From an uncultured Clostridia bacterium (lineage in GTDB: Bacteria; Bacillota; Clostridia; HGM11327): a stretch of DNA of 64,000 bases. Position numbers and translations under genes: made by a program. The stretch covers positions 42 to 64,041 of the forward strand of contig CAMEIT010000002.1 of the NCBI GenBank assembly GCA_945918795.1. Reading direction: 5' to 3'. Shown here piece after piece: positions 22,099-47,700 of this stretch. Every line of letters starts with the position of its first letter. The stretch's first letter is position 1. Under the pieces are notes generated by a model that was not told where the DNA came from, ran no database searches, and saw only the letters and a program-made list of their open reading frames with translations.

Positions 22099-22138
22099 AA
22101 ATGTTCCTCTGTTTTTTGACTGATTTTTGTGCTGTATA

Positions 22139-23584: not shown

Positions 23585-23667
23585 AATATTGAAATCTCCT
23601 TTTGTTTTTTGTTTTTGGGGACTTTTGAAAGAAGCCAGTAATAATCTCTTCGAGATTATTACGCAAG

Positions 23668-23886
23668 CCCGAAAACTTTAAAACGCTTCGCGGTTTACAC
23701 ATCTTCCCGCCGAGAGTATGGCGGCAAGATGTGCATTGAATTTACACCTCTTTTTCGGGGTTTTTTTCTTGGGAGCTTTTGAAAAGCTCCCAAACCCGAA
23801 AACTTTAAAACGCTTTGCGGTTTACACATCTTCCCGCCGAGAGTATGGCGGCAAGATGTGTATTGAATTTACACCTCTTTTTCGGG
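23668..23886. repeat. Two tandem copies (23668-23759 and 23795-23886) of a 92-nt highly structured element in the glgD-glgA intergenic region
   Basis: The copies differ at 2 of 92 positions. Each has outer stem CCCGAAAA/TTTTCGGG and an inner 14-bp hairpin CACATCTTCCCGCC/GGCGGCAAGATGTG. The spacer carries the hairpin GGGAGCTTTTgaaaAGCTCCC. A degenerate third copy lies upstream (~23600-23667). Confidence 0.8.
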
Positions 23887-24042
23887 TTTTGAGTGCACCT
23901 TAATATAAGAAAGAAACGTAAACTTAATGGCAATCTGACTTGACGATCATCGGCAAGGCAGATTGTCAACTGCAACGCAGTTTAAAGTTTCGCACAAGCC
24001 TTTTCAAAGGCTTGGCGGGGTACGGGCGGCAGCCCGAAAAAA

Positions 24043-25176: not shown

Positions 25177-25205
25177 ACTGTTACCTCCTTTGTTTTGACC
25201 TTATA

Positions 25206-26417
25206 TTAAATGTGTGCGAGAGTGTTTGCGTTAATCATTTCAGAGCCTTTTATGACTGTCCCGTCGAGAATATCAAGTCCGCTGCCGAGCACGGCAATGC
25301 CTGCACCGCTTGATACGGGTTCGCCTATGATACATTCCGAGCCGATCTTTGTATCCGTATCGACTATTGAATATTCCACAACGGCTCCGCTTGCAATTTC
25401 AACTCCGCTCATAATAACGCTGTCTTTTACGACTGCTCCCTTTGCGATCTTGACTCCGTTGAAAAGGACGGAGTTTTCAACAGTGCCGTAAATTCTGCAG
25501 CCTTCAGTGACGATTGAATTCTTTATTACCGCGCCTTCACCGACAAAGTGCGGCGGATTTGCATAATTCCTCGAATAAATGCGCCATGAACGGTCATTGA
25601 GTCTGAATGCGGGGGAGTCGCCGAGAAGATCCATATTGGCACTCCACAAGCTGTTTATAGTTCCTACGTCCTTCCAGTACCCGTCAAACGGATAAGCATA
25701 CATTGCCATACCGTCGCCGAGCATATTGGGGATTATGTTTTTGCCGAAATCGTTTGATGAAAGAGGGTCCTCTTCGTCGCGACGGAGATAATCAAGCAAT
25801 ACACTTGTCGTGAATATGTAAATACCCATTGACGCCTTTGTGCTCTTCGGATGCTGCGGCTTTTCTTCAAATTCATATATTTTTTCCGAGCCGTCATCAA
25901 GCGTATTCATTATGCCGAAGCGGCTTGCCTGGTCCATCGGAACGTCTATTACAGCTATCGTGCAGTCGGCGTTTTTCTGCTTGTGGTATTGGAGCATGGC
26001 GTTGTAATTCATTTTATATATGTGGTCGCCCGAAAGTATGAGTACATATTCGGGGCCATAGCTTTCTATGAAGTTGATGTTCTGATATATTGCGTTTGCC
26101 GTACCCTTATACCAATTTGCGCTTTTCTTGCCCTGATAAGGTGGAAGAATCGAAACGCCTCCGTATGTGCGGTCGAGGTCCCAAGGCTGACCGTTGCCTA
26201 TGTATTCGTTAAGCTCGAGAGGCTGATACTGCGTGAGAACGCCTACGGTGTCTATGCCTGAATTAATACAGTTTGAAAGAGGAAAATCGATAATTCTGTA
26301 TTTCCCTCCGAAAGGAACCGCCGGTTTGGCATTTTGCTCTGTGAGCGTATAAAGTCTGCTTCCCTGACCGCCTGCAAGAAGCATTGCGATACATTCTTTT
26401 TTATATTGTCTGCGCAT
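25206..26417 (-). CDS. glgC: Glucose-1-phosphate adenylyltransferase
   Basis: N-terminal [16 protein letters not shown] and [18 protein letters not shown] motifs. AAGGAGG RBS. Confidence 0.85.
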
Positions 26418-26807
26418 GAATTTTCCTCCTTGTTATATTTTTATATGTTTTTACAAAATGTTTTCAATGAGCTCCGTCTGTACGGACATCATCGTTATTT
26501 ATTTAATTATACAACAACAACGCGGATTTTTCAACGCGGGATTTTATTAAATATGCGTAAAATATATAATATTGTTTGGATAAATAAATTTTACACTGCA
26601 TGAATAAATTGAGATTGACAAATATATAGGCTGATGCTATAATAAAATTACGTGACCGAAAAGTACAGTACCGAATATACATAAAAATTCAAATATGTGT
26701 GCAAAAGTCGGGGAAAAACGGTCAACTCGGGAGAGCATCAAACGGGAATACCGCACGGATTTTTTCGAATACTCCCGAGCAAAATAACTATGGAACGGAG
26801 ACAGGTT

Positions 26808-28985
26808 ATGAACGGATTTTGGATATGCGCCGATGAGACGCCCTCAAAGACGCAGATGTATTGCTTTGAACATAAATTCACTGCAAAAGACGGCGCCGAA
26901 ATGAAGGCAAGCGTATGTGCTGACAGCAGATACAAGCTTTATGTGAATGACGAGCTCGTGTGCGACGGACCGTGCAGAGGCTCGCAGTATATTCGTTACT
27001 ATGAAGAACCCGATATTACACCGTACCTTAAGGCGGGCGAAAATACAATACGTGCAGAGGTAATATTCCTGACTGAAAACGTATTTATATCCGTATTCAG
27101 GGAGCATCGCCCAGCGTTGTGGTTCAACGGAATATTAAACGAGAACGGTCAGACGAGACAGATTTATTCGGATGAAAGCTGGACGTGCCGCAGACTCGAT
27201 TCGATAGTATTCAGCACGCCGCCGGGAATGATGACTTCAATACCTCCCGCTGAATTTGTTTCGGGTGAGGACAGCTACACATCAATACCCGTAAGACGTA
27301 TGTATGAACCGAATATAGAGAACGGTTGCTTTAATCCGTGGGGCGGCAGAGAGCTGTACCCGCTCGGCAAAAGAATTATTCCGTTTTTGAAGCCGGGTGC
27401 AAGAAAACCGTTTACCGTTTCAAAGCAGGATACGGGCTTGATTGACCTTGATGCAGGCGTTTATACGACGTCGCTTGTAGACCTTTGCTTTGAGGGCAAA
27501 AAGGGAACTAAGCTTTACATAAAGTATTCCGAGTGCTATCAGGGCGAGGACGGAGAAAAACGTATGCGCGATGACAGCACGGGTACGCTTAACGGCTATC
27601 AGGATATTATCGTTCTTACGGGAAAGCCGCAAACATATTCAACATTTTTCTTCCGAGCATTCAGATACGTCCGTCTTGAATTTGAGGACAAGGAAATGAC
27701 CTTTGACATTGAAAAGTCGGGTTACAGAGAGTATTTCTATCCGCTTGATGAGGACGGCTCATTCAAGTGCAGTGACGAGCGCCTCAATCGCATATGGGAT
27801 ATTTCAAGGAATACCGTAAAATGCTGTATGCACGAGCTTTTTGTTGACTGCCCGTATTACGAGCAGCAGCAGTACGGAATGGACAGCGCACTTGAAATAA
27901 TGTTCTCACTGCGTATGTCTTCGGATACGCGCCTTATAAAGAAAGCCATAACGGACTTTGTACATTCACAGCTTCCCGACGGAATGCTTCAGGCAAATTT
28001 CCCATCAACAAGCGTGCAGGTAATTCCCACGTTCTCGCTTTATTGGTTGCTCATGCTCAGAGAATATCTCCGTTATTGCGGCGATGTAAGGTTTGTAAGA
28101 AGCCTCACGGGTACTGTGGATAAGGTTCTTCAGGCGTTTGACAATCTTATAAACGAGGACGGTCTTGTAGGACCGACACATTATTGGCCGTATACGGATT
28201 GGGTGCCGAAGTGGTATTGCGGTGTTCCGGAGGGCGGCAGACAAGAGCCTCTTACGGTATATTGCCTTATTTATGCGACAGCACTCGGCGCGGCAGAGGA
28301 GATATGCTCTGCTGTCGGAAGAGAAGCGCTTGCAAAGGAATATGCAAAACGCCGTGATGCAATGATCAAAGCCGTAAACGAAAAGTGCTTTGATGCTGAG
28401 GCTCAAATGTACCGCGATACGCCGACAAGACGCGATTTCAGCGAGCATACGGCGCTGTGGGCAGTGCTTTCGGGAGCTGTCAAGGGAGAAAAAGCAACAA
28501 AGCTTATGGAAAAGGTAATGAACGAGGATGTTTCAAGATGCACATTCTCCATGAATTACTATATGTTCCGCGCGCTTGAAAAGGCGGATTGCTACAAATA
28601 TTCAGACAGACTTATGGCAGGCTGGCAGAAAATGCTTGATTTGCACTGCACAACGTGGTGCGAGGCTCCGGATAAGCCGAGGAGTGAATGTCACGGCTGG
28701 TCGAGCGCACCTATTTATGAGATGTCGGCATTGACGCTCGGTGTTTGCCCGACAGCCGATGGATTTAAGAGCGTAAGAATAAAGCCTGTAACGGGCAAGC
28801 TTGAATGGGCAAAGGGAACTGTTCCGACGCCTTACGGTGTTATCGGAGTTGAGTGGAAAAAGCAAAACGGGAAATTTATACTTGACGCAGTAATTCCGGA
28901 GGCGATAAATATGCCGGTAACGGTAATACTTGAGGGCAAGGAGCCTGTTTGTGTGAATGAACATAAGATCCATATTGAGGCTTGA
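26808..28985 (+). CDS. GH78-like (alpha-L-rhamnosidase family) six-hairpin glycoside hydrolase
   Basis: ~725 aa. The DCPYYEQQQYGMD segment resembles the DCPxRE..GWxGD region of bacterial rhamnosidases. GGAGA RBS before the ATG at 26808. Confidence 0.45.
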   Translation: MNGFWICADETPSKTQMYCFEHKFTAKDGAEMKASVCADSRYKLYVNDELVCDGPCRGSQYIRYYEEPDITPYLKAGENTIRAEVIFLTENVFISVFREHRPALWFNGILNENGQTRQIYSDESWTCRRLDSIVFSTPPGMMTSIPPAEFVSGEDSYTSIPVRRMYEPNIENGCFNPWGGRELYPLGKRIIPFLKPGARKPFTVSKQDTGLIDLDAGVYTTSLVDLCFEGKKGTKLYIKYSECYQGEDGEKRMRDDSTGTLNGYQDIIVLTGKPQTYSTFFFRAFRYVRLEFEDKEMTFDIEKSGYREYFYPLDEDGSFKCSDERLNRIWDISRNTVKCCMHELFVDCPYYEQQQYGMDSALEIMFSLRMSSDTRLIKKAITDFVHSQLPDGMLQANFPSTSVQVIPTFSLYWLLMLREYLRYCGDVRFVRSLTGTVDKVLQAFDNLINEDGLVGPTHYWPYTDWVPKWYCGVPEGGRQEPLTVYCLIYATALGAAEEICSAVGREALAKEYAKRRDAMIKAVNEKCFDAEAQMYRDTPTRRDFSEHTALWAVLSGAVKGEKATKLMEKVMNEDVSRCTFSMNYYMFRALEKADCYKYSDRLMAGWQKMLDLHCTTWCEAPDKPRSECHGWSSAPIYEMSALTLGVCPTADGFKSVRIKPVTGKLEWAKGTVPTPYGVIGVEWKKQNGKFILDAVIPEAINMPVTVILEGKEPVCVNEHKIHIEA

Positions 28986-29329
28986 TTAAAAAACAAATGC
29001 GCTTTGTGAAGGCTTTCCAAAGCGCATTTTTTGTTTTGCGTGGCAATGGGACTTCCCATTATTGCCGATAAAAGCATGATTTTTGCCGAAACGGATTTTT
29101 ATGGAAATATTATGATGAAAAAATACGGATTATATATATGATTGACTTTTTTTGTCAACAATGATATAATAACCTCAAAATAACAAAACAAAAAAGGCTC
29201 TGCCGCGTTAAGCATTGGCACAAGGGGAAGTAAAGTTGCGACAGGGTTTTTTTATTATCAAAGATAAGTCAAAGCGGTATCGGGAAGCATTTAACGGGAC
29301 GCGATATTACTTTGGGCAAGGAGGGAATA

Positions 29330-30247
29330 ATGTTAAATTCACCTGTTTTAGTTGTATTGGCGGCAGGTATGGGGAGCCGATACGGAGGCTTGAAGCAGAT
29401 AGACAAAATGGACGAGTACGGCAACACGCTTATTAATTTTTCATTGTACGATGCTTATAAGGCGGGGTTCAGAGACGTACTTTTTATTATCAGGCATGAC
29501 ATAAAGGATGACTTTATGGCGGTAATGGGTGATAAGCTCGGCAAATTCGATAACGTTGACTACGTTTATCAGGACCTTGACAATTTGCCGTCGGGAATTG
29601 AAATACCGTTAGGGCGCACAAAGCCTTACGGCACGACGCACGCACTGTTCTGTTCAGCCGAAAAGCTTAAAGGTAAGCAGTTCATAACGATAAATGCAGA
29701 CGATTTTTACGGCTACGGCTCGTATGAGCTTGCGTACAAATTTTTGGCAGAGGAAAAAGCACCCGATACTCACGCTATAATAGGCTATGAAATTGCAGGC
29801 ACGCTGAGCAAAAGCGGATACGTTTCAAGAGGCGTGTGCATTACGGATAAGGACTCAAATCTCGTGAGAATCGATGAGCGAAAGAAAATCAAGCTTATCG
29901 ACGGGGAAGGGTATTTTACTCTCGATGACGGCAAAACATTCAACGCTATTCCTCATGAGGCTGTTTCTTCCATGAATATGTGGGCGTTCAACAGGAATTT
30001 TATAGATGAGCTTGAAAGAAGCTTCCCGGAAAGACTTAAAAACGGTCTTGAAGAGCAGCCTCTGAAGTTTGAGGAGACGATTACGGATGCCGTCAAGCTT
30101 ATGATTGAAAAAGAACAGGCAAAGGTAAAGGTAGTGCCTACGGCAGAAACGTGGTTCGGCGTTACGTATCATGAGGATAAACCAATGGTAAAGGCGTCGA
30201 TAGATAAGCTGCGTGCCGAAGGCAAATACCCGGACAAGCTATATTAA
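29330..30247 (+). CDS. Sugar-phosphate nucleotidyltransferase family protein
   Basis: N-terminal LVVLAAGMGSRYGGLKQ is an NTP-transferase G-loop. GGAGGG RBS. Confidence 0.5.
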   Translation: MLNSPVLVVLAAGMGSRYGGLKQIDKMDEYGNTLINFSLYDAYKAGFRDVLFIIRHDIKDDFMAVMGDKLGKFDNVDYVYQDLDNLPSGIEIPLGRTKPYGTTHALFCSAEKLKGKQFITINADDFYGYGSYELAYKFLAEEKAPDTHAIIGYEIAGTLSKSGYVSRGVCITDKDSNLVRIDERKKIKLIDGEGYFTLDDGKTFNAIPHEAVSSMNMWAFNRNFIDELERSFPERLKNGLEEQPLKFEETITDAVKLMIEKEQAKVKVVPTAETWFGVTYHEDKPMVKASIDKLRAEGKYPDKLY

Positions 30248-30274
30248 TATAAAACACAGGAGATGAAAAACGGA

Positions 30275-31186
30275 ATGCTTGGTTTGCCAATAATATATTT
30301 ACTTATTCTTTCGTTTGTATTCTGCGTTATCGCGTACATAACGAACAGCCTTTTTGCAAAGAAAATTTCTTCGACAGGATCGGATTATTATTTTTTCATG
30401 ATGGTCCAGGCGTTAGTCTGCGGCACTACAATACTTATTATCTCGGGTGGGATCAGTAAGGTATCATCATTTTCGATACTGTTCGGTGTACTTTTCGGAG
30501 CTGTTTGTACGTTCCAGACGCTTACTTACCTCAAAGCACTTTCAATAGGACCTTTCTCATACACGACTGTCATGGTGTCGCTTTCAACTGTAATTCCGAC
30601 ATTGAGCGGACTGTTCTGGGGCGAGACAATTTCCGTGGCACAGATTATAGGTATTGTGCTTATGATAATTTGTATTGCGCTTTCACCCGAGAAAAAAGAG
30701 GGCGCGGATGCAAAAAAAGCATCAACAAAATGGCTTGTGCTTTCGCTTGTGTCGACTGTCTTAAACGGCACTATCGGAGTTTTGCAGAAGATTCATCAGA
30801 CCTCCGAGCACAGGGATGAGTCGCCCGTATTCCTTATTTCCGCTTTCTCGGTAATGATAATAATTGTGGTATCTATTCTCATAGCACGCAAGATAAAATA
30901 CAAGGACTCCGGTGACGCAAAAATATCGTTCAGATTCAAGCTGTCGCACATACTCATATTGCTCGGCTCGGGCGTTGCGCTCGGCGTAAGCCACGTTGTA
31001 AATCTGTTCCTTTCGGGACAATTGCCTGCGGCTGTGCTGTTCCCGATAATAAACATTTGCCCGCTTGTGCTGACAACCTTGGCGGCAACCGTCATATTCC
31101 GCGAGAAGCTTTCGGTTAAACGCTGGATAGGGCTTGCAATCGGAATACTCGCGGTGCTTTTCGTCGGAGGCGTTATACCGTTCTGA
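30275..31186 (+). CDS. DMT/EamA-like family transporter
   Basis: ~300 aa, ~10 TM helices, with two EamA-like halves. The upstream ATG at 30263 is too close to the SD. Confidence 0.55.
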   Translation: MLGLPIIYLLILSFVFCVIAYITNSLFAKKISSTGSDYYFFMMVQALVCGTTILIISGGISKVSSFSILFGVLFGAVCTFQTLTYLKALSIGPFSYTTVMVSLSTVIPTLSGLFWGETISVAQIIGIVLMIICIALSPEKKEGADAKKASTKWLVLSLVSTVLNGTIGVLQKIHQTSEHRDESPVFLISAFSVMIIIVVSILIARKIKYKDSGDAKISFRFKLSHILILLGSGVALGVSHVVNLFLSGQLPAAVLFPIINICPLVLTTLAATVIFREKLSVKRWIGLAIGILAVLFVGGVIPF

Positions 31187-31368: not shown

Positions 31369-32601
31369 ATGAAAATAGCTGCCATTATATCGGAATACAA
31401 TCCGTTTACCTCCGGGCACGCCTATCACATCCGGGAAACAAAAGCGCTTACCCATGCGGACGCGGTAGTCTGCATAATGTCGGGAAATTTTGTTCAGCGC
31501 GGTGAGCCGGCTATGTTTGATAAGCAGTTCCGAACAAGACTCGCTCTTGAAGGCGGAGCAGACGTCGTTTTTGAATTGCCGACGCTTTTTGCGCTTCAGA
31601 CGGCAGAGCTTTTTGCTTTCGGCGCGGTGAAAATACTCGATTCCCTCGGCTGCATGGATTACCTTTCGTTCGGTACGGAAAGCGAGATGTCTTTTCTGCT
31701 CAAAATAGCTTCTCTTCTTGCCGATGAACCGTACAGCTTCAAAAAAGAACTGAACAGGAATCTTGACGACAAACAGCCTTTTGCTCAGGCAAGAAGCAAT
31801 GCCATTGCAAAATATTTCAATCTTTCGGAAGAGGAAAAATTATCCCTTTCTCTTCCCAATTCGATTCTTGCAATAGAATACATAAAAAAGCTCATGCAGT
31901 TTGAAAGTACGATACAGCCCGTATCTATACACAGAGTAGGAGCCGCATACCGCGACGAAACAACATATTCAGATTATATGTCCGCAACGGCACTCAGAAA
32001 GGCCATAAAAGAGGGCAATTTTGCCTCTGCCGCCAAAACTTTGCCCGCAAAAATATCAAAAATGCTGTCTCAGCAGACAAAGTGGGCGGACAACAACGAC
32101 TTTTTTCGAGCAATAAGATACGCTTTGCTTCGTTCGGATGCCGCTTCGCTGAAAAAAATATCGGGAATTACGGAGGGACTTGAAAATTCATTTGTTTCGG
32201 GTCAATTTGCCGCAACATTTGATGAGCTTGTTGAAAATGTGCACTCAAAGCGCTATACGAAGACGTCGATACAGCGCATGATATATAATATTCTACTCGG
32301 AATTACGACGGAAAACATTGAATACTGCAAAAAAAACACAGACACGCATTATGCAAGGGTTCTCGGCTTCCGACAGGAATCATCGGGCGTAATAAAATAC
32401 ATATCCGAGCATTCGTCTATTCCGATTATTACAAATGTTCCCGCATATAAAAAGTCTATACCCGATACGACGATGTTTGACAAGGATATACTTGCAAGCG
32501 ATGTTTATCAGTTATGTACCGGTCTGCCTGCATCGGGAAGCAGACCTGATTTCAAGCTCGTACCTATAATACGCGGAAATGATTTTCCTGAGCTTAGTTG
32601 A
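31369..32601 (+). CDS. tmcAL: tRNA(Met) cytidine acetate ligase (YlbM/DUF795 nucleotidyltransferase)
   Basis: N-terminal IISEYNPFTSGHAYHIRETK, which is the HxGH-type nucleotidyltransferase motif of TmcAL. 410 aa. Confidence 0.7.
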   Translation: MKIAAIISEYNPFTSGHAYHIRETKALTHADAVVCIMSGNFVQRGEPAMFDKQFRTRLALEGGADVVFELPTLFALQTAELFAFGAVKILDSLGCMDYLSFGTESEMSFLLKIASLLADEPYSFKKELNRNLDDKQPFAQARSNAIAKYFNLSEEEKLSLSLPNSILAIEYIKKLMQFESTIQPVSIHRVGAAYRDETTYSDYMSATALRKAIKEGNFASAAKTLPAKISKMLSQQTKWADNNDFFRAIRYALLRSDAASLKKISGITEGLENSFVSGQFAATFDELVENVHSKRYTKTSIQRMIYNILLGITTENIEYCKKNTDTHYARVLGFRQESSGVIKYISEHSSIPIITNVPAYKKSIPDTTMFDKDILASDVYQLCTGLPASGSRPDFKLVPIIRGNDFPELS

Positions 32602-32627: not shown

Positions 32628-35600
32628 TTAATTAATGTTCACGACAATTTTGTGCGTTTTGCCGTCATCGATAAGCGTTATTTCTCCGTCGGGGCATTCT
32701 TTGCCGTCAAGTAAACAGCCATTGCCCTCCGAACAGATCACGTCAATAATATATTTTGTTTTTTCGCTTCCGTTTTCGCGGTGATATTCCACTCTGAACG
32801 GAAGCATATCCTTTTCAACGACAGGATTTACTCTTATCTTGTCGTTTTTTATTTTTATACCGAGTATATTTTCAAGTATGGTCTTATACATCCATGCCGC
32901 AGAGCCCGTATACCACGTCCAACCGCCCATGCCCACATTTGTGCTTGCGGAATATACGTCCGCCGCGACAACGTAAGGCTCCACCTTGTAATTTTCAGCC
33001 TGTTCTTTTGTGAGGGCATGATTTACGGGATTCAGCATTTTCAGTATGCGCATTGCTTTTGCCGCTTCGCCGCGCATTGCAAAAGCTGTGACGAGCCATA
33101 TTGCACCGTGTGTATATTGTCCGCCGTTTTCTCTTATGCCGCATTTGTATGCTTTTATATATCCCGGATTGCGGTCGGTATCCTTGAAGGGCGGCCAAAA
33201 CAGCTTTACGATTCCGTTTTTTTCATCAACAAGATATTTTTCGGCAGACTCGAGAGCTTCTTTTATCTGCTCATTCGGAGTTATATCGGCAATTGCCGCC
33301 CATGCTTGCGCAATAATATCTATTTTGCATTCATCACATTCGATACTTCCGATGGGCGCACCGTCGTCATAATATGCGCGCCTGTACCATTTGCCGTCCC
33401 ATGCGCTCTGCTTTATACCTCTTTCAAGCATATTGCAGGCTTCGGCAAGAAATTTCATGTCATCCGTTTTATTGAAATATCCGCACACCTTTATAAAACC
33501 CCGAATTACATAGTGTATAAAGAATGCGAGCCATACGCTTTCTCCCTTGCCGTTTTCTCCGATTTTATCAAAGCCATCGTTCCAGTCGCCCGTTCCTATG
33601 AGAGGAAGTCCGTGAGGACCTATCCGGAGTGATTTTTTGAGAGCAAGCATACAGTGCTCGTATAAGGACGCTGTGTTGTCCGAAAAGTATGCTTTTCCGA
33701 AGCTTGAATTTTTACCCTCTTTTATTTCCTGACCTCTCACAAAAGGCACCTGCTCGTTAAATATTTCCATATCGCCGCTGAATTGTGCGTATTCAGAGCT
33801 TACGTACGGAAGAAACACGAGGTCGTCGGATATTTTTGTTCTTATTCCGTACCCTGTTGCTTCATGCCACCAATGCCTTACGTCGCCCTCCTCAAACTGC
33901 TGACGAGCCGCACGGAGAATATGCGTTTTTGCTTCGTTTTTGTCGCAGTACATGAATGCGAGCACATCCTGAAGCTGGTCGCGGAAGCCGTACGCACCCG
34001 AGCACTGATAAAACGATGTTTTTGCATGATATCTGCATACGTAAGCCTGATACATAAGAAAATTATTGAACAGCATATCAAGAGCCTTGTCGTTTGTCGT
34101 GATCTTAAAAGGCCTCGTAAGAGATGAATAATGCAAAGCTACGTCGTTAAGAAGCTTTTTTGCTTTTTGGGGAGATGAATATTTATTTTTAAGCCTTTGT
34201 ATATCCTGTACGCTTTCAGCTCCGCCTAAAAGCAGCACGACTGTCCCTGTGCAATGAGGCTTTATTTCAACAGATGTTTTCAATACGATGCAGTCTGCAC
34301 AAACGCGCTCGCCCGAAGCTCTCCATGACGAATAGTCAAGAGCTTTTGGGTGAGAAAATCCGCCTGTTCTGCCGAAAAAGTCTGATTTTCTCGATAAAAC
34401 CGCCTCAAGCTCTCCCGTACAGCCTGCAAACATAAATCCGTTTTCGGGAATATTCATGTTTTCGGCGTATACAATGCCGCTTGCTTTGCGTACTGTGAGT
34501 GCGATATTGTCAGGCACGGCAGATACGGCCGGTGAAAGATTGCATTCGGCATAATAATAAACGGACAGCTTTTTGCTTATATCGCTTTCGTTTTTAATTT
34601 CGAGTAAGGAAACCTTAACACTGTCCGACGGCGGTACGAAAACGGTTTTTGTAACGCCAAGCTTATTTGCACTATGGCGGTATACCGCGTACCCCAAGCC
34701 GTATGAAACCGTATATTGTCCCGTACCGTCCACAATTCTTGCAGGATTGATATATTGCATTGTCGAATCGTCCTTGATGTACACAGCCTCGGCAGGAACG
34801 TCGCTTACAGGGTCGTTGCACCATGAGGTGAGCTTGTTTTCTCTGCTGTTTTTATACCACGTATATCCACCCGCGCTTTCCGTGACGACAGTGCCGAAAT
34901 CGGCGTTTGCAATTACATTGCTCCACGGGGCAGGCGTGTTTTGACCGTTGTCAAGCAGTATTGTATATTCGCTTTTTGCTTCGTTGAAGCCGCCGTATCC
35001 GTTGAAGAACACAAGCTTTGGCAATATCTCTTCATTTTTAGAGGTATCTTTCCTTATAAGCTTCGGCAGTATGGCAATATTTTCTTTTTTTATGCACTTG
35101 TCTTCAAAAAATATTTGAGCGTATATCTGCGCCTCGCTTCCGTACACCGAGACAGCCGCGCTTTGAGCTATAACAGCGCACTCGTGAGGATTCAGTTCAC
35201 TCTTCAGAATGAATATTCCACCCTTTTTGCCTATCATATCGCGGCATGACGACGTGGATACTATACTGTACACTTCGTCGTAATTACTTTTGTGGTATCC
35301 GTCGTCACCTGTTATCAATACGAGGTCAGCCTTGACGTTCCCGGAAGATATATATTCATATGCGCTGAGGATAAGCTTCAGTCCGCTTTTTTCCGCTCCC
35401 GATGTTTTGCAGCATATTATAGGCAGGTCACCGGAAATTCCGAACTGCCACAAAAGTGTTTTTGCGCAAGGGACAGCTTTTGTTCTGAATGCTTTTTGAT
35501 AATACAATGAGCTCAATATGCTGTTTGCGAGCCTGAAGCGCTTTGAATCTATCCTCTTGTACTGCATCGATATTTTCGAATGCTCAAATGCAAGCTCAAA

Positions 35601-38600
35601 CGCTCTTGCGCAGTTGTCGGGATTTGCGTAATGCTCGGTGATATTGAGAATATCCGAGTAATTGTCCGAATACGCAAGGATATAGTCTATCTGAGCGCTT
35701 TCGCCCTGAGCAAGACTAAGCTGTACGGCGAGTGACGCGCACGGTGAAAGAGTGCTTCTGCTTAGTGAGTCATAATCAAAGCTTCGGCTGAAAAACGCGG
35801 GATTTGATGATGTTTTGTTACGACCTATAAAGTCGTAGCGTGACGTTATGGGCAAAATAGCTTTGGATTTCGGGCACACAGCCATAACGGCGGCAAACTG
35901 CTTTGATTTTTCGTCCGTTCGCGGTGTTCGCTGAGTTACTATGGCATTGTTATCGCTGAGGTACCTGCTTTCCACAAACATATCCGAGTATGCGGGATGA
36001 GAGTAGCTTTCTTCGAGAGTCTCAAGCGCAGGCTCAAAATAGTCGGCAACTGTAAGCTTTTTTGTTCTGCTGTGAGTGTTTTTTATACGCAGTCTGAATA
36101 CTGCGGCATTTCTGTCGGGGCATACAGTTATATTGAGATTACTTTCAATTCCGCGCACCTTTCCGACAAACGTTATGCTGTCGGGCTTGAACGTCACGCT
36201 GTTGTATGAGCTTTTGCCGTAAACGGGAGAAGGCGTTACCGAATAAGCAAAGCCGCTTTCTTCGTCTTTTATGAAAATAAAATGACCGTACTGTTCTGCA
36301 ATTTCGTCACTTTTCCATTTATTGAGAACTATATCGCCTGCAAAGGCTATGTTTGAACCGGAATTGCTTATGACCATACTCAATGAGCCGTTTGTGAGCA
36401 TTGAGCAGTGGGGATGCTGAGTGATGCCGTTAAAGCTTTCCTCAATGTTTTTTGCATAAATATCGGGAGATTTATCTATTGTCTGTCTGGGGACTGCGTC
36501 AGGCTGAACAACGCTCGGCAGTTTTTCCTGAAGCAGTATTTCGCCTGCTTTTACCTCGGGAGCGCTGTGAAAAAGATTTATCATGCAGTCTTTTTTCAGA
36601 CAGTTTGCGGCGGCAATTAGGCTCATGCCTTCATGATGCGCCATGAATGACTTTATTATATTGTCGGAGTCACCGGACATATCCACAGCCTCGTAAAAAC
36701 CGTATCTCGAGCACATTCCGGATTGCCTGAGCCTTTTCAGATTTTTTGCGGCCTTTTCGGGCGCAAACGGAAGTGCGAGGGCTGTGGCATAAGGTGCCAC
36801 TACATATTCGCCCGTTTTTGTGTGGCGCACAGCCGCATACGGTATTCCGAACGCCTTGTACTGATAGTATTTGTCGCCGTCAAAATGCCAATAGCCCGAT
36901 TCGGAAATACCCCACGGGCGCTTTACCTTCCTTGCATAGCGCATCTGTTCCTCGATGATACCGTCAAATGCGTTGCTCCACAGCGTATTGCCGTAAGTTT
37001 TGAGCAATAAAGCCGGCATTAGATATTCAAACATCGAGCCGCTCCACGATTTTAATATATAACGTCCGCTCCGTTTTACGACTATTCGGGAGAGGCGTTG
37101 CCAATGTTTTATTCCGACCTCGCCCGATATTAACGCATAAAAGCTTGTCTGCCTTGCTTCGGAGGCAAACATATCGTATGCGTATTCGGAGAGCTTTTGC
37201 GCTTCAACGTCAAAGCCTACCGAAAACAAGTCCTTTTTCTCATCGTAAAGCAGTGAGAAATCCATGTTTTTGAGAATCGATTGTACGGACGATATGCTTT
37301 CGTTCAGCTTTATGAGTATTTCGGCGTCGGTAACGGTATCCTTGTATTTGCAAAGCGCCTGCCTTACCGCAACAAGACAGCAGGCAAGATTTCCGTTGTC
37401 TGCGCTCGAGACAAACATAGGGTGGAGGGGCTTTAGCGTTGTTATGTCGTACCAATTGTAAGGATGACCGTTCCACTTTTCGAGCTTGTCAAGCGTGGCA
37501 ATTGATTTTGAAAGCATGAGAACCGCTTCCTTATCGCTTAAAAAGCCAAGCTCTTCTGCCGCGACACAGCCGCAAAGCATCATGCCTATATTTGTAGGCG
37601 ACGTGCGCATGACGGCACCCTTGTACGGCTCCTCCTGGAAATTGTCCGGCGGCAGATAATGCGTTTGCTCCGTACACAGCTCTTTGAAATAATTCCATGC
37701 GCCTTTTGCCGTAAATTCAATGATCTCTTCCGCTTCGGCAGAAAGATTTGTCTCTTTTTCCTTTTTTGCTCGGCTTAATCTGTATACCGCAAACGGCGCA
37801 AGCATGAATGCTCCACCGATGAGCGCCTCAAGAAGTCTTGACGATATGAGAGCCGAAATGAAAAGTGCGACCCCGAACAATGCCGAATATAGCATCACAT
37901 TATAATATGAACGGAGACTGCCTTTGTTTGAGCTTTCCGATTGCATTGCCGTCTGCCATTCGAGGAGCTTTTTCTTTGATTTGAGCCGCGCAATAGTCCT
38001 TATGACGGCATCGATATTGTTGAACGCGCAATCTGCCGCAAGGAGCATATTCAGAATAGCCCTTGTGAAAACATCAAAGCTGATCCTTTTATGCTCGTTT
38101 TGCGTTATTTTAAGCCATAAAACACTCAAAAGCTCAAAAATACACGGCAATACCGACTGTAAACCATACAGTATGACTGCAGACAGGAATATTTCTTTGA
38201 TGAATATGCCTATTATGAGAAGCAGACATATTGCAGGCTCTGTAAGTGTTCTTAAGAGGTTTTCATATATTTTATATTTGGTTGTTCCGTCAAGATAATT
38301 GTATATTCGTTTCCCCGCGCTGTTTCTTGTTATAGGCATAAGATACGGCAAGAGCTGCCAATCGCCGCGCATCCACCTGTGAGCACGCTTCCTGTAAGAA
38401 ATGTAATTTGACGGCACATCGTCAACAAAAACAACGTCCGAAACATACCCCGAGCGAAGATAACCGCCCTCTATCATATCGTGGCTGAGTATGGCATTTT
38501 CGGGGAATCTGCCGTCTATTACGTCACAGAAAACCTTGGAATCGTATATGCCTTTGCCTGCAAAGCTCCCTTTACCGAATATATCCTGATATATTTCGGA

Positions 38601-40517
38601 AACACTGTTTATATACGGCTCGCTTCCGGCGCTCCCTGCCATGAGCATTGAAAAACGTGTTTTCAGTGCCGAAGTGAGGCTTGTATCCATTCTCGGCTGA
38701 AGTATTCCGCGTCCCGATTTTACGGTAGCGGTTGCGGGGTCGAAAACGGGCCTGTTCAGAGGATGATCAGCTGTACCGACGAGAGCAAAAGCACTGCCTA
38801 TGGGCATTTTTGTGTCGGCATCAAGTGTGATGACATATTTCGAGCCTACAATGCTTTCTATTCCCGCACTCGCAAAGCAGAAATCCTTTGTGTTGCCGCT
38901 TTGAAGGAATCTGTTGAACTGAATTACAGCACCGCGCTTGCGCTCCCAGCCGAACCAGCGGTTCTGGCTTTCGTTGAATTGCCTGTCTCTGTGCATATAA
39001 AAGAATATGCGCTTGCCGTATTTGACGTTCAGTGCGTTTATTTTGCTGTTTGTGAATGCTTTTATCTGTTCGTCGTCCACATTTTTGCCGCAGTCGGAAT
39101 CGGCAAAGTCTCCGAGCAGTACGAATGATATATTATCACTTTTGTTGGAGATATAGTTGATCTCCATATTTTCCGCAAGAAGCTCTGCCTGCGCCGTATT
39201 TACGATAAGCGCCGGAGTGACAACGACTGTTGAGCATTCCTTTGGAATGCCCTTTTCAAAATCAAGCCTCAAAAAACGTGTCGGCTTTACAAGCTTTGAG
39301 GCAATGAAATTCACAAGGACAAGCGCCACGGCGCGGCACGGTATATACATTATAAATGCCGAAATGATAAACAGCACCGTGTTTATGCCGCTTTTGCCGA
39401 GCAGGCCGAGCGATATGCCGAATATCATGAATGTGACGGAATAAAGTCCGACGATATACAAAAGCCTTTTGATGAGAGATGTTCCCGAATTGTTTTCAAA
39501 CAGAATTTTGCCTATATGGCACTTTTCTTCATTTGCCTCGGCAAGTATTCTTTCGGCGCACTCGGTTTCGGAAATATGAAGCTTTTTTGCTTTCTGCTTC
39601 AGCTTTTTGCGGTAAATGTTCTTGCTTTCCGAGTCCATTTTTGCATATGTGCCGTCATCTTCCGAGCTGAACACAGCGTCTGCAATGCACACGTTGCCGA
39701 ATATCCTTTCCCAGTCGAACATATTTATCTTCATAAGGCTTGTTATGGAGTTCCTTATTGTGATGACGCAGTTGGATTCTATATGGCGTGAAAATTCGAG
39801 CACTTCGTTTGCCGACATATTTATACGCGAAAGCTCGCTGTCAAGCCAGCGCAAAACGCCTTTGCAGTCAGGCGCATTCTGTATTGCCGTAATGAATGAT
39901 GCAAGCTTTGCCGCATCGTTGACATTGACGAGGCTCTCGAGAGACTCCGCCTTTAAATCGTTTCTTTGGCATACCTCCTCGGCTGTGCGCTTTATATTGC
40001 GTGCGGAAACGAGCGCTTCATAGCGTCTGCAAGCAAGAGTCAATATGTTCCTTGCAAGCGCAAGAGAAAAAGCCGCCGAAAGCGACCATAATTCGTCCAT
40101 AGTCAGCACAAGCTCCTTTTGGTATTGCTCAAGGAACTCGGTGATGCCGTTTTCGGTCACAACTCCGCCGTTGAAATCTATATATTCCACTGCAATCGCG
40201 TATATTCTCGGAAAGCCTTTCATAATCCCGTCCGAAAGCACGGGAATATCGTGCGGTATGTTGTGTATCGATTTTTTTATGCTTTTGAGCTGCATTTTGA
40301 TAGCGTAATAATTATCGACGAACCATTCCGTCGCGGAATCCGGAATTTCCTCATCAAAGCAATGATTTTCCGCTTCTTTGTAATATTCGTCAAATACAGC
40401 CTCCTGCTGTTTGGTAATAACGAAATTACCGAATGGGGTTCTAAATAATCTGTTTGTCACACGCTTGTGCGACACAGCCAACTCTATTGCCAACGACTGT
40501 AATGTGTTTCTGTTCAA
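32628..40517 (-). CDS. Cyclic beta-1,2-glucan synthase-like protein, with N-terminal TM segments, a GT84 glycosyltransferase, a central glucanotransferase region and a C-terminal GH94 phosphorylase domain
   Basis: 2629-aa single ORF. A DxD-type GT region (VITLDADTKMP ... QPRMD) lies between TM clusters. The C-terminus carries a GH94 (cellobiose/chitobiose phosphorylase-like) domain with a GDWNDG motif. TTG start with an AAAGGAA RBS. Confidence 0.65.
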   Translation of the reverse strand: MNRNTLQSLAIELAVSHKRVTNRLFRTPFGNFVITKQQEAVFDEYYKEAENHCFDEEIPDSATEWFVDNYYAIKMQLKSIKKSIHNIPHDIPVLSDGIMKGFPRIYAIAVEYIDFNGGVVTENGITEFLEQYQKELVLTMDELWSLSAAFSLALARNILTLACRRYEALVSARNIKRTAEEVCQRNDLKAESLESLVNVNDAAKLASFITAIQNAPDCKGVLRWLDSELSRINMSANEVLEFSRHIESNCVITIRNSITSLMKINMFDWERIFGNVCIADAVFSSEDDGTYAKMDSESKNIYRKKLKQKAKKLHISETECAERILAEANEEKCHIGKILFENNSGTSLIKRLLYIVGLYSVTFMIFGISLGLLGKSGINTVLFIISAFIMYIPCRAVALVLVNFIASKLVKPTRFLRLDFEKGIPKECSTVVVTPALIVNTAQAELLAENMEINYISNKSDNISFVLLGDFADSDCGKNVDDEQIKAFTNSKINALNVKYGKRIFFYMHRDRQFNESQNRWFGWERKRGAVIQFNRFLQSGNTKDFCFASAGIESIVGSKYVITLDADTKMPIGSAFALVGTADHPLNRPVFDPATATVKSGRGILQPRMDTSLTSALKTRFSMLMAGSAGSEPYINSVSEIYQDIFGKGSFAGKGIYDSKVFCDVIDGRFPENAILSHDMIEGGYLRSGYVSDVVFVDDVPSNYISYRKRAHRWMRGDWQLLPYLMPITRNSAGKRIYNYLDGTTKYKIYENLLRTLTEPAICLLLIIGIFIKEIFLSAVILYGLQSVLPCIFELLSVLWLKITQNEHKRISFDVFTRAILNMLLAADCAFNNIDAVIRTIARLKSKKKLLEWQTAMQSESSNKGSLRSYYNVMLYSALFGVALFISALISSRLLEALIGGAFMLAPFAVYRLSRAKKEKETNLSAEAEEIIEFTAKGAWNYFKELCTEQTHYLPPDNFQEEPYKGAVMRTSPTNIGMMLCGCVAAEELGFLSDKEAVLMLSKSIATLDKLEKWNGHPYNWYDITTLKPLHPMFVSSADNGNLACCLVAVRQALCKYKDTVTDAEILIKLNESISSVQSILKNMDFSLLYDEKKDLFSVGFDVEAQKLSEYAYDMFASEARQTSFYALISGEVGIKHWQRLSRIVVKRSGRYILKSWSGSMFEYLMPALLLKTYGNTLWSNAFDGIIEEQMRYARKVKRPWGISESGYWHFDGDKYYQYKAFGIPYAAVRHTKTGEYVVAPYATALALPFAPEKAAKNLKRLRQSGMCSRYGFYEAVDMSGDSDNIIKSFMAHHEGMSLIAAANCLKKDCMINLFHSAPEVKAGEILLQEKLPSVVQPDAVPRQTIDKSPDIYAKNIEESFNGITQHPHCSMLTNGSLSMVISNSGSNIAFAGDIVLNKWKSDEIAEQYGHFIFIKDEESGFAYSVTPSPVYGKSSYNSVTFKPDSITFVGKVRGIESNLNITVCPDRNAAVFRLRIKNTHSRTKKLTVADYFEPALETLEESYSHPAYSDMFVESRYLSDNNAIVTQRTPRTDEKSKQFAAVMAVCPKSKAILPITSRYDFIGRNKTSSNPAFFSRSFDYDSLSRSTLSPCASLAVQLSLAQGESAQIDYILAYSDNYSDILNITEHYANPDNCARAFELAFEHSKISMQYKRIDSKRFRLANSILSSLYYQKAFRTKAVPCAKTLLWQFGISGDLPIICCKTSGAEKSGLKLILSAYEYISSGNVKADLVLITGDDGYHKSNYDEVYSIVSTSSCRDMIGKKGGIFILKSELNPHECAVIAQSAAVSVYGSEAQIYAQIFFEDKCIKKENIAILPKLIRKDTSKNEEILPKLVFFNGYGGFNEAKSEYTILLDNGQNTPAPWSNVIANADFGTVVTESAGGYTWYKNSRENKLTSWCNDPVSDVPAEAVYIKDDSTMQYINPARIVDGTGQYTVSYGLGYAVYRHSANKLGVTKTVFVPPSDSVKVSLLEIKNESDISKKLSVYYYAECNLSPAVSAVPDNIALTVRKASGIVYAENMNIPENGFMFAGCTGELEAVLSRKSDFFGRTGGFSHPKALDYSSWRASGERVCADCIVLKTSVEIKPHCTGTVVLLLGGAESVQDIQRLKNKYSSPQKAKKLLNDVALHYSSLTRPFKITTNDKALDMLFNNFLMYQAYVCRYHAKTSFYQCSGAYGFRDQLQDVLAFMYCDKNEAKTHILRAARQQFEEGDVRHWWHEATGYGIRTKISDDLVFLPYVSSEYAQFSGDMEIFNEQVPFVRGQEIKEGKNSSFGKAYFSDNTASLYEHCMLALKKSLRIGPHGLPLIGTGDWNDGFDKIGENGKGESVWLAFFIHYVIRGFIKVCGYFNKTDDMKFLAEACNMLERGIKQSAWDGKWYRRAYYDDGAPIGSIECDECKIDIIAQAWAAIADITPNEQIKEALESAEKYLVDEKNGIVKLFWPPFKDTDRNPGYIKAYKCGIRENGGQYTHGAIWLVTAFAMRGEAAKAMRILKMLNPVNHALTKEQAENYKVEPYVVAADVYSASTNVGMGGWTWYTGSAAWMYKTILENILGIKIKNDKIRVNPVVEKDMLPFRVEYHRENGSEKTKYIIDVICSEGNGCLLDGKECPDGEITLIDDGKTHKIVVNIN

Positions 40518-40654
40518 AGCTATCCATTCCTTTTCCGTTTGTATTTATATCACGGTTATTATTCACGCCTGAAATGAATTTTATACTTTGCACGAAAAAC
40601 AAGTTTACGCTTTTGATAATTTGAGAATTTGCCGCGTTTTACGGGATATTGATT

Positions 40655-41365: not shown

Positions 41366-41581
41366 ACGGCATCTCCTTGTTAAAGCTTTTTGCAGTTAAT
41401 TTTATGCCGTAAAAGCTTTTTTAATGCACGCATGAGTTTTTTAAAACAAAAACAACGGCAAGCCCCGAGTATTCGCACGGGAGGAGGGCTTTGCCGCCGT
41501 TTTGAGGAAAAATAAAAAAATTACATAAAAACGTTATAAATTATTTAGCAGTCGGTTCATATCCGTTCGGATTCGGCTGAT

Positions 41582-44799: not shown

Positions 44800-47700
44800 A
44801 TGAAAAAAAGATTTTTATTACTGATATTGCCTTTAACGGTATTTTTATGCTTATTTTCGATAAATTCGATGCAGAGCTCATCTGCCGGGACTGTGACGGT
44901 TCAATTTGAATTGGAATCAACGGAGTACGCAAAGCCGGGGGATGAAATTCAACTGAAAATATATGCAAATGTTTCGGGAAGCAAGCTTGCCGCCTTTGAC
45001 TTTGCAATCAATTATAATTCGTCTTTGCTCGAGCCGAAGCATGATGAGTTCGGTGAGTACGCTTATGACGATGACTTTTTCAATTCCCTTGCAAACAGTA
45101 AAAATGTAAGCAGCTATGTTGAAGAAAACGGTACGGGGGTACTGCAAGCTTTATACGCTGCAAGCAGTCTTGAGGCTACATATGTTCCCGAGGGGAAAAC
45201 GCTCTTATATACGTGCTATTTTGTCGTAAAGGCTACTGCATCAGACGGAACGGCAGCTTTCTCGTTGTCGAATCCGGCAGCAAGCTATCGTAGCTCGGGA
45301 GGAAGTCTGACAGCTGTGCCCTCAGGCGACATTACATCGACAACTGCGGCAACGACCGTAAAAAATGAGCTCTCATCGGACAATAATCTCGGCTCGTTAA
45401 CAGTAAGTACGGGCACACTTTCGCCTTCTTTTGACCCCTCTGTAACATCATATACCGTAAATGTGCCGTATGCGACATCGTCAATAACGCTTACCGCTTC
45501 GGCAAATGACGCGCTTTCCACTGTTGTGGGTGCCGGCACAAAGACGCTTGAAGTCGGTGACAATTCTTTTGATATTACGGTTACGGCGCAAAACGGAACA
45601 AAAAAGGTTTATACAGTGACGGTAAACAGAAAAGCCGCTTCAACAGACAACACTTTGCAGTCGTTGACAGTAAGCGAGGGCGCGCTTTCGCCGACATTTG
45701 ATCCGTCTGAAACCGTATATAATGTAACAGTGCCGTACGAGATAACTTCAATAACACTTGCGGCAACGGCAAACGATATACTTTCCACTGTTGCGGGTAC
45801 AGGCACAAAGAACCTTAATATCGGAAATAATTCTTTTGCAATAACGGTCACAGCCGAAAACGGTACTCAAAAGATATACACTGTAAACGTAACAAGAGAA
45901 AAGTGTACCGATAATACTCTGAAGTTGCTTACTGTAAGCGGAGGTACTTTAACTCCGTCATTCAGCCCGTCTGAAACCGTATATAATGTAACAGTGCCGT
46001 ATGAAACAGACAGCATAACTATTACTGCTGAAAAAAATCACGACACGGCAACCGTTACCGGTGCAGGCGTAAAGAGCCTTGCAGTCGGAAGCAATTCTTT
46101 TGAGATAACAGTAACAGCCCAAAACGGTGCACAAAAGAAATACACATTAAATGTTACGAGAGAAAAGTGTGCAGATAACACACTCAAATCGCTTTCGGTA
46201 AGCGGATACCAGCTGGAGCCGTCGTTTGATAAGTCAGTGCTTGAATACGTACTGAGAGTGCCGTATGAGCTTGGCAGTATAACAATATCGGCAGAGAAAA
46301 ATCACAGTACGGCAACACTGACGGGTACGGGAACAATGACACTGCCCGAGTCGGGAAGCACTGTTTTCTCTGTGAAGGTAACAGCACAGAACTCAAATGT
46401 AAAGGAGTATAAAATAACCGTCATCAAAGCGGACCCTTCAACGGATAACACACTGAAGTCGCTTACAACAAACACGGGTACATGGGATAAGGTGTTCAGC
46501 CCGTCTCAGACATCATACGTTGTTACAGTGCCGTATGCCACATCAAGCATAACGCTCTCGGCAACTGTAAATGATGTGCTTTCAACGGCAACAGGCATGG
46601 GCACAAAGACGCTTGTAGTTGGGAACAATACTTTTGAAATAACCGTTACCGCGCAAAGCGGCGATAAAAAGGTATACACCGTTACAGTCAACCGTAAGGC
46701 GGCATCAACGGATAACACGCTCAAATCGCTCACAACGAATACAGGCTCATGGGATAAGGCATTCAACCCGTCCGAAACATCATATAAAGTGACGGTGCCG
46801 TATACGACGTCGGGCATAACGATTACTGCCGCCGTAAATGACGCACTTTCAACTGTTACGGGCGCAGGAAACAAGAGCCTTAATGTAGGTGATAATTCTT
46901 TTGCAATTACGGTAAAGGCTGAAAGCGGCGCTCAAAAGCAATACACTGTAACAGTAACAAGAGAAAAGTGTACGGATAATACACTCAAGTCGCTTTCTGT
47001 AAACGGATATACATTAACTCCGTCATTCAGTCCGTCTGTATCGGAATATAAGCTTAACGTGCCTTATGTGGTAAACAGTATAACTATTTCGGCACAGGCA
47101 AATCATGCCACTGCAACGGTATCGGGCATAGGCACAAAGACGCTTGCTGTCGGAGAGAATACTTTTGCAATAACAGTGACGGCACAAAACGGCACAACAA
47201 AGGTATACACTATTATCGTAACACGCAAAGCGGCATCAACGGATAATAATCTCAAATCATTGACAATAAATACGGGTACGCTTTTGCCGTCATTCAGCCC
47301 GTCTGAAACATCATACGAGGTAACAGTGCCGTATGCCGTATCGAGCATAACGCTCAATGCCGAGGTAAACGATGCACTTTCAACACTTTCGGGCACGGGT
47401 ACGAAAGAGCTTTCAGTCGGGGAAAATGTGTTTGAAATAACGGTTACGGCTCAAAACGGAGCAAAAAAGGTTTATACCGTGACTGTAACGAGGCAAAATG
47501 CTTCAACGGATAATAACTTGAAGTCTCTCACAACGAATACGGGCGAATGGGACAACGCATTTGACCCCGAGCTGACTTCATACATTGTCAGAGTGCCTTA
47601 TGCCGTAACAAGCATAACGCTCAATGCTGTTGTAAACGATGCACTTTCAACACTTTCGGGCGCAGGCGCAAAAGAGCTTTCAGTCGGGGAAAATGTATTT

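Follow-up and report, generated by a model that had tools for sequence, protein, structure and literature searches.

A cyclic β-1,2-glucan synthase-type gene joined to a cwlD-like gene in an uncultured Clostridia bacterium, and a conserved forespore-type promoter-like element upstream of it

A 64,000-nucleotide stretch of DNA from an uncultured Clostridia bacterium (contig CAMEIT010000002.1; the whole stretch analysed is referred to here as the window) carries a giant gene, cgs, whose predicted product resembles the cyclic β-1,2-glucan synthases (Cgs) best known from the Rhizobiales. The gene occupies 32628..40517 on the reverse strand as a single uninterrupted open reading frame (ORF) of 2629 codons with no stop inside the translation, a length of open frame that is far beyond chance. 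Its immediate neighbours are a cwlD-like amidase gene, 137 nt 5' of cgs on the same strand, and a tmcAL-type gene that converges on it (Table 1). Translation is assigned to a TTG codon (40517-40515), the first possible start past an in-frame upstream TAA (40547-40545). The string AAAAGGAAyGGATnnyTTTGAACAGAAA is kept across this start at loci encoding Cgs proteins with 45-96% identity to that of the window, and independent gene calls at these loci pick the identical N-terminus, MNRNTLQ. Given this agreement among relatives, the TTG start is not an artefact of ORF listing. The dN/dS ratio of cgs is 0.10 when compared with a 96%-identical relative and 0.10 when compared with a 69%-identical one, and its G+C content of 0.44-0.48 is no different from that of the flanks. 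Both ratios indicate purifying selection on an intact gene.

The predicted protein was compared with Pfam models and with structurally characterised homologues. Over query residues 61-2577 it is collinear with Cgs/ChvB of Agrobacterium tumefaciens (AtCgs; 8RF0/8RF9; E = 0, 1388 bits), the match consisting of two overlapping stretches (query 61-1096 and 1066-2577). No Pfam model covers the N-terminal domain (aa 1-345) in the Pfam scan. The glycosyltransferase core (aa 416-745) is flanked by hydrophobic blocks at ~350-410, 757-805 and 873-915, each of about two helices in a Kyte-Doolittle scan, and this arrangement is consistent with a six-helix membrane anchor. In the middle region, Pfam placed DUF3131 at 936-1062 and PF10091 at 1117-1319; the best domain-level match here was the cyclization domain of Thermoanaerobacter italicus (8WY1, 6e-111). 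The GH94 half runs from supersandwich 1 through a Rossmann-fold-like subdomain (~1684-1830) and supersandwich 2 (1862-2098) to the catalytic (alpha/alpha)6 domain (2129-2553). Pfam recognised the two supersandwich domains and, over this last interval, the GH94 catalytic domain PF17167 (E = 1e-103), and the alignment to 8RF0 confirmed the presence of the Rossmann-fold-like subdomain between the supersandwiches.

Residues singled out in the structural papers on AtCgs (PMC10901819) and on the T. italicus enzyme, TiCGS (PMC10834661), were then located in the window protein. In the GT84 domain these are D470 (At D527, UDP binding), the DxD pair D566/D568 (At D624/D626), the catalytic base D680 (At D739), the RW motif R714-W715 (At R773-W774), and R526 (At R586) and R717 (At R776), both near the putative substrate site. 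The autoglucosylated primer tyrosine corresponds to Y635 on the IF1-homology loop, where GSEPYIN aligns with GIDPYVF containing At Y694. The cyclase domain contains the active-site acid D1040 (At D1104), the acid/base E1120 (At E1300/Ti E1356) with its supporting residue E1164 (Ti E1400), and the nucleophile E1206 (Ti E1442) supported by H1294-H1295 (Ti H1536-H1537). In the phosphorylase, the RD motif is R2179-D2180 (D2180 being At D2393) and the catalytic acid is D2314 (At D2528), within the GDWNDG motif at 2310-2315; H2470 is a further residue noted in this domain. All checked GT84, cyclase and phosphorylase residues are invariant between the window protein and eight members of its clade with 46-96% identity. 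An initial annotation of the window had described a single 2629-aa frame with an apparent TTG start, had raised a frameshift as a ground for doubt, and had assigned a Cgs/NdvB-type architecture of GT84, glucanotransferase-like and C-terminal GH94 (GDWNDG) regions. Frame and start were upheld, the latter by its conservation together with the ribosome-binding site in relatives at 45-96% identity; no frameshift was seen; and the architecture was borne out by Pfam, by full-length collinearity with AtCgs, by 8WY1 and by the residue alignments.

Because the protein is collinear with AtCgs over its full length, matches 8WY1 and contains all of the published catalytic residues, it is very probably a genuine Cgs, expected to make cyclic β-1,2-glucan from UDP-glucose. 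By homology with the A. tumefaciens enzyme, it would lie in the cytoplasmic membrane through about six helices with all catalytic domains on the cytoplasmic side. The GT84 domain would glucosylate its own Tyr635 on the IF1-like loop and then extend this primer with β-1,2-linked glucose from UDP-glucose at the cytoplasmic face of the membrane. Chain length would be set by the GH94 domain (acid D2314), trimming the chain by phosphorolysis, and the GH189 domain (nucleophile E1206, acid/base E1120) would release the ring by intramolecular transglycosylation. These reaction steps and their product are carried over from the work on A. tumefaciens and T. italicus.

Compared with AtCgs (8RF0, 8RF9; Sedzicki et al. 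2024, PMC10901819), whose orthologues include Brucella Cgs and rhizobial NdvB, the window protein has the same domain order (N-terminal domain (NTD), transmembrane region (TM), GT84, TM, cyclization domain (CY), GP1, Rossmann-fold-like subdomain, GP2 and GP3) and keeps every catalytic residue and the primer tyrosine. Identity between the two is about one third, and the window protein is ~200 residues shorter, mainly through the absence of an insert in CY. Unlike A. tumefaciens, the window host belongs to the monoderm Clostridia and has no periplasm; no ChvA-type exporter adjoins its cgs gene, which neighbours cwlD in place of virulence or osmoregulation loci. The C-terminal 800 residues also align with GH94 phosphorylases (E = 1e-50 to 1e-66) such as the cellobiose/chitobiose phosphorylases 3QDE and 1V7V and LpSOGP of Lachnoclostridium phytofermentans (cited in PMC10901819), with which the GDWND acid is shared. 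Those enzymes are soluble and catabolic; the window module forms part of a synthase, in which, to judge from AtCgs, it would control chain length.

The absent insert sets the window protein apart from every structurally characterised GH189 member. Between D1040 and E1120 there are 80 aa, compared with 196 between D1104 and E1300 of AtCgs, so that the four-helix insert of ~120 aa found in all of the characterised members is missing; in homologues with the insert, the interval is 165-335 residues. T. italicus belongs to the same class, Clostridia, as the window host. Its enzyme (Thit_1831), of which the domain TiCGSCy is the founder of GH189 (8WY1; Tanaka et al. 2024, PMC10834661), shares the catalytic pair and the supporting Glu and His-His with the window Cgs. 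Unlike the window Cgs, TiCGS has the ~120-aa insert: its chain residues 162-285 lack a counterpart in the window protein. Since all members of the clade and at least 14 further homologues from the databases (2600-2800 aa) have the short form, alignment identifies insert-less Cgs as a real subfamily that is not unique to the window. In AtCgs, the four-helix motif protrudes from the cyclase domain and makes a back-to-back dimer contact; it is peripheral and not catalytic (PMC10901819). Given this peripheral position, its loss is expected to change the oligomeric state and not the chemistry.

Upstream, the cwlD-like gene encodes an amidase whose best NCBIfam match is spore_cwlD, TIGR02883. At 182 bits this match falls below the cutoff of 221.55, and the gene is therefore named only cwlD-like; with this qualification, both flanks named in the initial annotation, cwlD and tmcAL, were recognised, NF010191 being above its cutoff for the latter. 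The loci of relatives, each designated by L and a number, showed that the arrangement is conserved. The cwlD-like gene adjoins cgs in L001-L004, L007 and L009-L011, and lies directly 5' of it on the same strand at eight of nine distinct clade loci; L008 (54% identity), a clade member, has no cwlD and differs in its start region as well. The tmcAL-type gene is kept downstream of cgs in L002 and L007-L011. Within contig reach, the whole cwlD-cgs-tmcAL trio was found in relatives with 96, 74, 69, 48, 46, 45 and 42% identity, and genes outside the trio vary (pyruvate kinase in the window, a SipL-like and a helix-turn-helix (HTH) gene in L010, pta-ackA in L009). The tmcAL-type gene is regarded as a conserved neighbour that probably has no functional link to cgs. 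The spacer of 137 nt between cwlD and cgs contains no intrinsic terminator and no stable RNA fold (z +0.6). Given the terminator-like hairpin that follows the pyruvate kinase gene (Table 1), cwlD-cgs forms a separate transcription unit.

Two further observations were made around the trio. A terminator-like hairpin with a T-run on the forward strand (32817-32846) stands within the 3'-terminal part of cgs, 216 nt beyond the stop codon of tmcAL, and could end the convergent tmcAL transcript within the cgs coding sequence. In the 69% relative, the gene for a SipL-like (SpoIVA-interacting) protein and a small HTH gene stand just 5' of cwlD-cgs (L010, 4889-6472; L011, 672-2255), and they add to the sporulation context in the clade.

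The region between cwlD and cgs contains a two-block promoter-like element (Table 1). When the spacers were aligned by eye, all eight cwlD-linked loci were seen to carry G[TC]AT[ATG]-N17-18-[ACT]ATA[AC]TA, ending 34-42 nt before the TTG. This generalised pattern has one match in the whole window on both strands (128 kb), about the number expected by chance; given that it occurs only once in 128 kb, a match within one particular spacer of 140 nt is unlikely to arise by chance. The pattern was derived from the same clade sequences, and an independent matrix was hence used as the yardstick. This two-block position weight matrix (PWM) was built from 41 mapped σF/σG promoters of Clostridioides difficile (Saujet et al. 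2013, PMC3789822, Table S6), and a σE PWM was built likewise from 47 promoters (Table S7). With the forespore PWM, the cgs site scored 18.4 bits and ranked 3 of ~128,000 window positions, four of which reached at least 18 bits. Orthologous sites scored 18.4 (L007), 16.8 (L010), 16.8 (L004) and 16.2 bits (L002). A match to the forespore consensus thus lies at a functional distance from the cgs start codon. The element shares the architecture G(T/A)ATA-N13-16-GnnAATAATA with the C. difficile σF/σG promoters (PMC3789822), and its -10 block, GTGAATAATA, is identical to that of CD1543. No cgs gene is among those listed for the C. difficile regulons.

Two other promoter types were considered for cgs and rejected. 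The σE (mother-cell) PWM gave 10.4 bits, rank 152, at another site, and a σ70 consensus scan of the region between cwlD and cgs found no -35/-10 pair on the cgs strand. In front of cwlD itself, there is a candidate σE-type promoter (Table 1), and at the corresponding position of L007, L001 and L009 the σE PWM gave 14.4-15.8 bits. The candidate is weak; it agrees with the σE dependence of C. difficile cwlD, to which a σE promoter has been assigned (PMC3789822, Table S7).

Forespore-type elements were also looked for at cgs genes beyond the clade. In Clostridium argentinense, at an unrelated locus whose Cgs is 34% identical to that of the window, GCATA-N15-GGAAATAATA ends 36 nt before the ATG and is the top-scoring site of the 23.6-kb locus under either background. 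A weaker GTATA-N15-GAACAAAATA stands 33 nt before the start in L017 (31% identity). Among 51 environmental cgs loci, none reached 16 bits upstream of the gene (median 2.2), a control that is confounded by their higher G+C.

The other high-scoring matches to the forespore PWM in the window are listed here for comparison. The top match (19.5 bits, 25908, reverse strand) lies inside glgC, and one of 18.2 bits at 62210 lies at the 5' end of a large serine recombinase gene. A site of 18.6 bits at 53798-53828 (reverse strand), ~185 nt 5' of guaB, is a second promoter or else a false positive; guaB already has a TTGACA-N17-TATAAT promoter.

Table 1. Features of the cgs locus and of related loci; positions are those of the window unless a relative's locus is named
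Feature	Position	Strand	Evidence or remarks
tmcAL-type (HIGH_NTase1) nucleotidyltransferase gene, convergent with cgs	31369..32601	+	PF05636, 1e-125; NF010191, 381.9 bits (cutoff 360)
GH94 phosphorylase half, aa ~1338-2629	32631..36506	-	Pfam and 8RF0 alignments
GH189 cyclization (β-1,2-glucanotransferase) domain, aa ~921-1337	36507..37757	-	8WY1, 6e-111; 8RF0, 7e-89
Membrane anchor and GT84 glycosyltransferase, aa ~350-915	37773..39468	-	Kyte-Doolittle scan, motifs, 8RF0 alignment
N-terminal cytoplasmic domain, aa 1-345	39483..40517	-	Homologous to AtCgs NTD scaffold; HMMER alignment to 8RF9 from residue 61
Ribosome-binding site of cgs, AAAAGGAA	40527..40534	-	~10 nt 5' of TTG; kept in relatives
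Two-block promoter-like element, GTATA-N15-GTGAATAATA	40557..40586	-	-10 block ends 39 nt before TTG
cwlD-like N-acetylmuramoyl-L-alanine amidase gene, 236 aa, N-terminal hydrophobic segment	40655..41365	-	Amidase_3, 3e-48
Candidate σE-type promoter of cwlD, TGCATT-N16-CATAAAAT	41399..41428	-	σE PWM, 11.3 bits
Terminator-like hairpin and U-run after pyruvate kinase gene	41443..41497	-	-24.9 kcal/mol; z -3.2; 0/200 shuffles as stable
NTP_transferase-LbH-phosphomutase gene 5' of cgs, L014	3532-5973		Gap to cgs 28-32 nt (L014, L015)
NTP_transferase-LbH-phosphomutase gene 5' of cgs, L015	3486-5969		Gap to cgs 28-32 nt (L014, L015)
NTP_transferase-LbH-phosphomutase gene 5' of cgs, L098	4038-6480		

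The nearest relatives of the window Cgs come from metagenome-assembled genomes of Clostridia, Lachnospiraceae and Eubacteriales from gut and rumen samples. A genome scan returned six loci, all in metagenome-assembled genomes of Clostridia, Lachnospiraceae, Eubacteriales or Clostridiales. Identity to the window Cgs drops from 45% within the clade to 37% beyond it. In a rough neighbour-joining tree the clade is monophyletic, with other insert-less sequences as its sister group and the Bradyrhizobium branch at a great distance; homologues outside the clade, Bradyrhizobium included, are ~28-38% identical. A metagenome scan with the clade alignment gave at least 600 matching stretches, at least 584 of which encode relatives; the matches listed are distant relatives only (28-37% identity) from environmental samples and do not extend the clade. 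The cyclase domain is matched by 2928 proteins at E ≤ 1e-40. Cgs is thus a very large family.

Cgs homologues in the Firmicutes have been recorded before. In addition to T. italicus Thit_1831 (PMC10834661), of which the domain on its own turns linear glucan into rings and does not hydrolyse it, the literature names Cthe_1221 of Clostridium thermocellum (PMC3492117, PMC3990059, PMC8303734) and a homologue in Clostridium tetani (PMC5584792). GT84 entries exist for Aneurinibacillus and Alicyclobacillus, and database homologues are named from C. argentinense, Clostridium botulinum, Caloramator and Tissierellales. Since homologues in spore-formers are thus already annotated or published, one of them partly characterised, a Cgs-like gene in a Firmicute is not in itself new, and the rarity that the initial annotation had implied did not hold. 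That annotation had proposed a test for horizontal origin; the crude tree gave no sign of recent transfer from alpha-proteobacteria. In the literature, no paper was found that gives a Firmicute Cgs a role or ties Cgs to sporulation.

Gene order can be different at other cgs loci in Firmicute context. In L014, L015 and L098, cgs stands directly behind a gene for a fused NTP_transferase, LbH and phosphogluco/phosphomannomutase protein (Table 1), and this pairing of a nucleotidyltransferase-phosphomutase with cgs looks like a UDP-glucose supply operon. Both cgs and the phosphomutase-fusion gene are broken into several ORFs in Caloramator sp. mosi_1.

Several other features of the window concern sugar metabolism. 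A glycogen cluster, glgC-glgD-glgA-glgP, lies 6 kb from cgs (19660-26417, reverse strand) and encodes an ADP-glucose pyrophosphorylase pair, a starch-synthase-type GT5 enzyme and glycogen phosphorylase. The glg operon of Bacillus subtilis is under sporulation control. Sugar-use genes at 8356-13482 (reverse strand) and 26697-28985 (forward strand) include those for a GH3 β-glucosidase-type enzyme (11317-13482), an L-fucose-isomerase-like protein, an FGGY kinase and a rhamnosidase-like six-hairpin glycosidase. No β-1,2-glucan degradation gene of the GH144, GH162 or SOGP type was seen among the scanned ORFs of the window. At 29312-31186 (forward strand), a gene for a 311-aa sugar-nucleotidyltransferase-like protein is followed by one for an EamA-family membrane protein, and the pair is syntenic in L007, the 96% relative. 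The nucleotidyltransferase (29312-30247) was considered as a supplier of UDP-glucose and no claim is made for it, its only PDB relative being 3PNN, an uncharacterised structural-genomics protein.

Farther away, 44800-50052 (forward strand) encodes a predicted surface protein of 1750 aa. Its N-terminus has a signal-like segment, its C-terminus a hydrophobic anchor, and it contains 13 cadherin-like beta-sandwich repeats (PF12733, 3e-160). A DpnI-like methyl-directed restriction endonuclease (PF06044 and PF17726) is encoded beside an RlmL/THUMP-type methyltransferase at 54992-56986 (reverse strand). Two adjoining large serine recombinases (Resolvase, Recombinase and Zn-ribbon) at 60551-63635 (reverse strand) point to the boundary of a prophage or other mobile element.

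Because the cwlD-like spore-cortex gene and cgs are joined in one unit, and a conserved forespore-type promoter stands before cgs itself, a working model was formulated in which, if the host sporulates, the glucan would be produced in the course of sporulation and not for host interaction; the odds are put at roughly one in three. In this model a σF/σG-type promoter would drive cgs in the forespore, possibly with read-through from cwlD in the mother cell too, and the glucan would be a spore component (probability about 0.35). The glucan might serve as a core solute, aiding dehydration or providing a reserve for germination. Alternatively, if exported, it might act as an osmotic filler of the space that separates the two membranes of the forespore and in which the cortex forms; this inter-membrane space is the compartment of a monoderm that would most resemble the proteobacterial periplasm in which such glucans are held. 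Also counted for the link to sporulation is the abundance of the Cthe_1221 protein, which is in the bottom 10% during exponential growth of C. thermocellum (PMC3492117). A number of points weigh against the model. The cwlD-like gene scores below the TIGR02883 cutoff (182 vs 221.55 bits). The promoter type is judged with a matrix from a distant species of another Clostridia family; with it the sites in L003, L001 and L009 reach 8-12 bits only, and cgs is without a forespore-type element in L014, L015, L098, L016 and L008. Given that neither a small acid-soluble spore protein ORF nor any known spore gene lies behind the 53828 site, this matrix has false positives or unverifiable hits. Against the reading as a whole, the enzyme assignment included, stand two further points: among the scanned ORFs of the window (most of those of at least 150 aa) there is no ABC exporter of the ChvA/NdvA/Cgt type, and the Firmicute Cgs material assayed to date is the isolated T. 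italicus cyclase domain only (PMC10834661).

The same enzyme might instead be expressed in vegetative cells, giving an osmoprotective, envelope-associated, secreted, or host- or community-directed glucan as in Proteobacteria; on this account, which is a serious contender though short of even odds, the adjacency to cwlD would be inherited synteny and the promoter would be read by σA or another non-sporulation σ factor. It accords with the known roles of cyclic β-1,2-glucans, osmoadaptation and host interaction (PMC10901819, PMC11842490), with the response of Cthe_1221 transcripts to carbon source, and with the several cgs loci in Firmicute context that are without a forespore-type site; the convergent tmcAL gene is, moreover, equally conserved and has no obvious functional link, and the -10 block AATAATA is AT-rich and resembles TATAAT. 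Set against this, the conserved -35 block is GTATA-like and not TTGACA-like, the cgs strand of the spacer has no σ70-type -35/-10 pair, and the forespore PWM places the cgs site third in the window. The cwlD-cgs pair has also stayed joined while the outer flanks were rearranged, and C. argentinense, an independent lineage, has the element without cwlD. Other accounts would alter the product or the origin of the gene. That the protein makes a linear β-1,2-glucan, or is mainly a catabolic GH94 phosphorylase, is improbable: homologues are annotated in several sources as "cellobiose phosphorylase" or "glucoamylase family protein", the C. thermocellum literature takes Cthe_1221 as a cellobiose phosphorylase, and the clade is without the four-helix insert of the cyclase domain, but GT84, the primer tyrosine, both GH189 glutamates, E1164 and H1294/H1295 are invariant, the insert is peripheral in AtCgs and implicated in a dimer contact rather than catalysis, and the T. 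italicus domain cyclises linear glucan on its own with no hydrolysis (PMC10834661). Least probable is a recent acquisition from alpha-proteobacteria or a decaying pseudogene. The family is best known from the Rhizobiales, and the Caloramator sp. mosi_1 copy is fragmented; against this, the window ORF is intact (dN/dS 0.10) with the G+C of its flanks, and the clade, with 45-96% identity and conserved synteny, is monophyletic and far from Bradyrhizobium in the neighbour-joining tree, the homologues outside it being only ~28-38% identical.

In summary, the window Cgs is a new member of a family already annotated in its phylum, and its enzymology adds nothing new in principle: Cgs enzymes are understood in structure and mechanism, and CAZy-style annotations already include Firmicute homologues. 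Two details of the clade are new at the level of sequence: the absence of the ~120-residue four-helix dimerisation insert, and the linkage of cwlD to cgs together with a conserved forespore-type promoter-like element. The compact form of Cgs is widespread and could be a simpler scaffold for the enzymatic production of cyclic glucans. The cwlD-cgs unit and its promoter make the role of cyclic β-1,2-glucans in bacteria that have no periplasm concretely testable. If the sporulation model is true, these glucans, which to date are known only from osmoadaptation and host interaction in Gram-negative bacteria, would gain a new physiological role.

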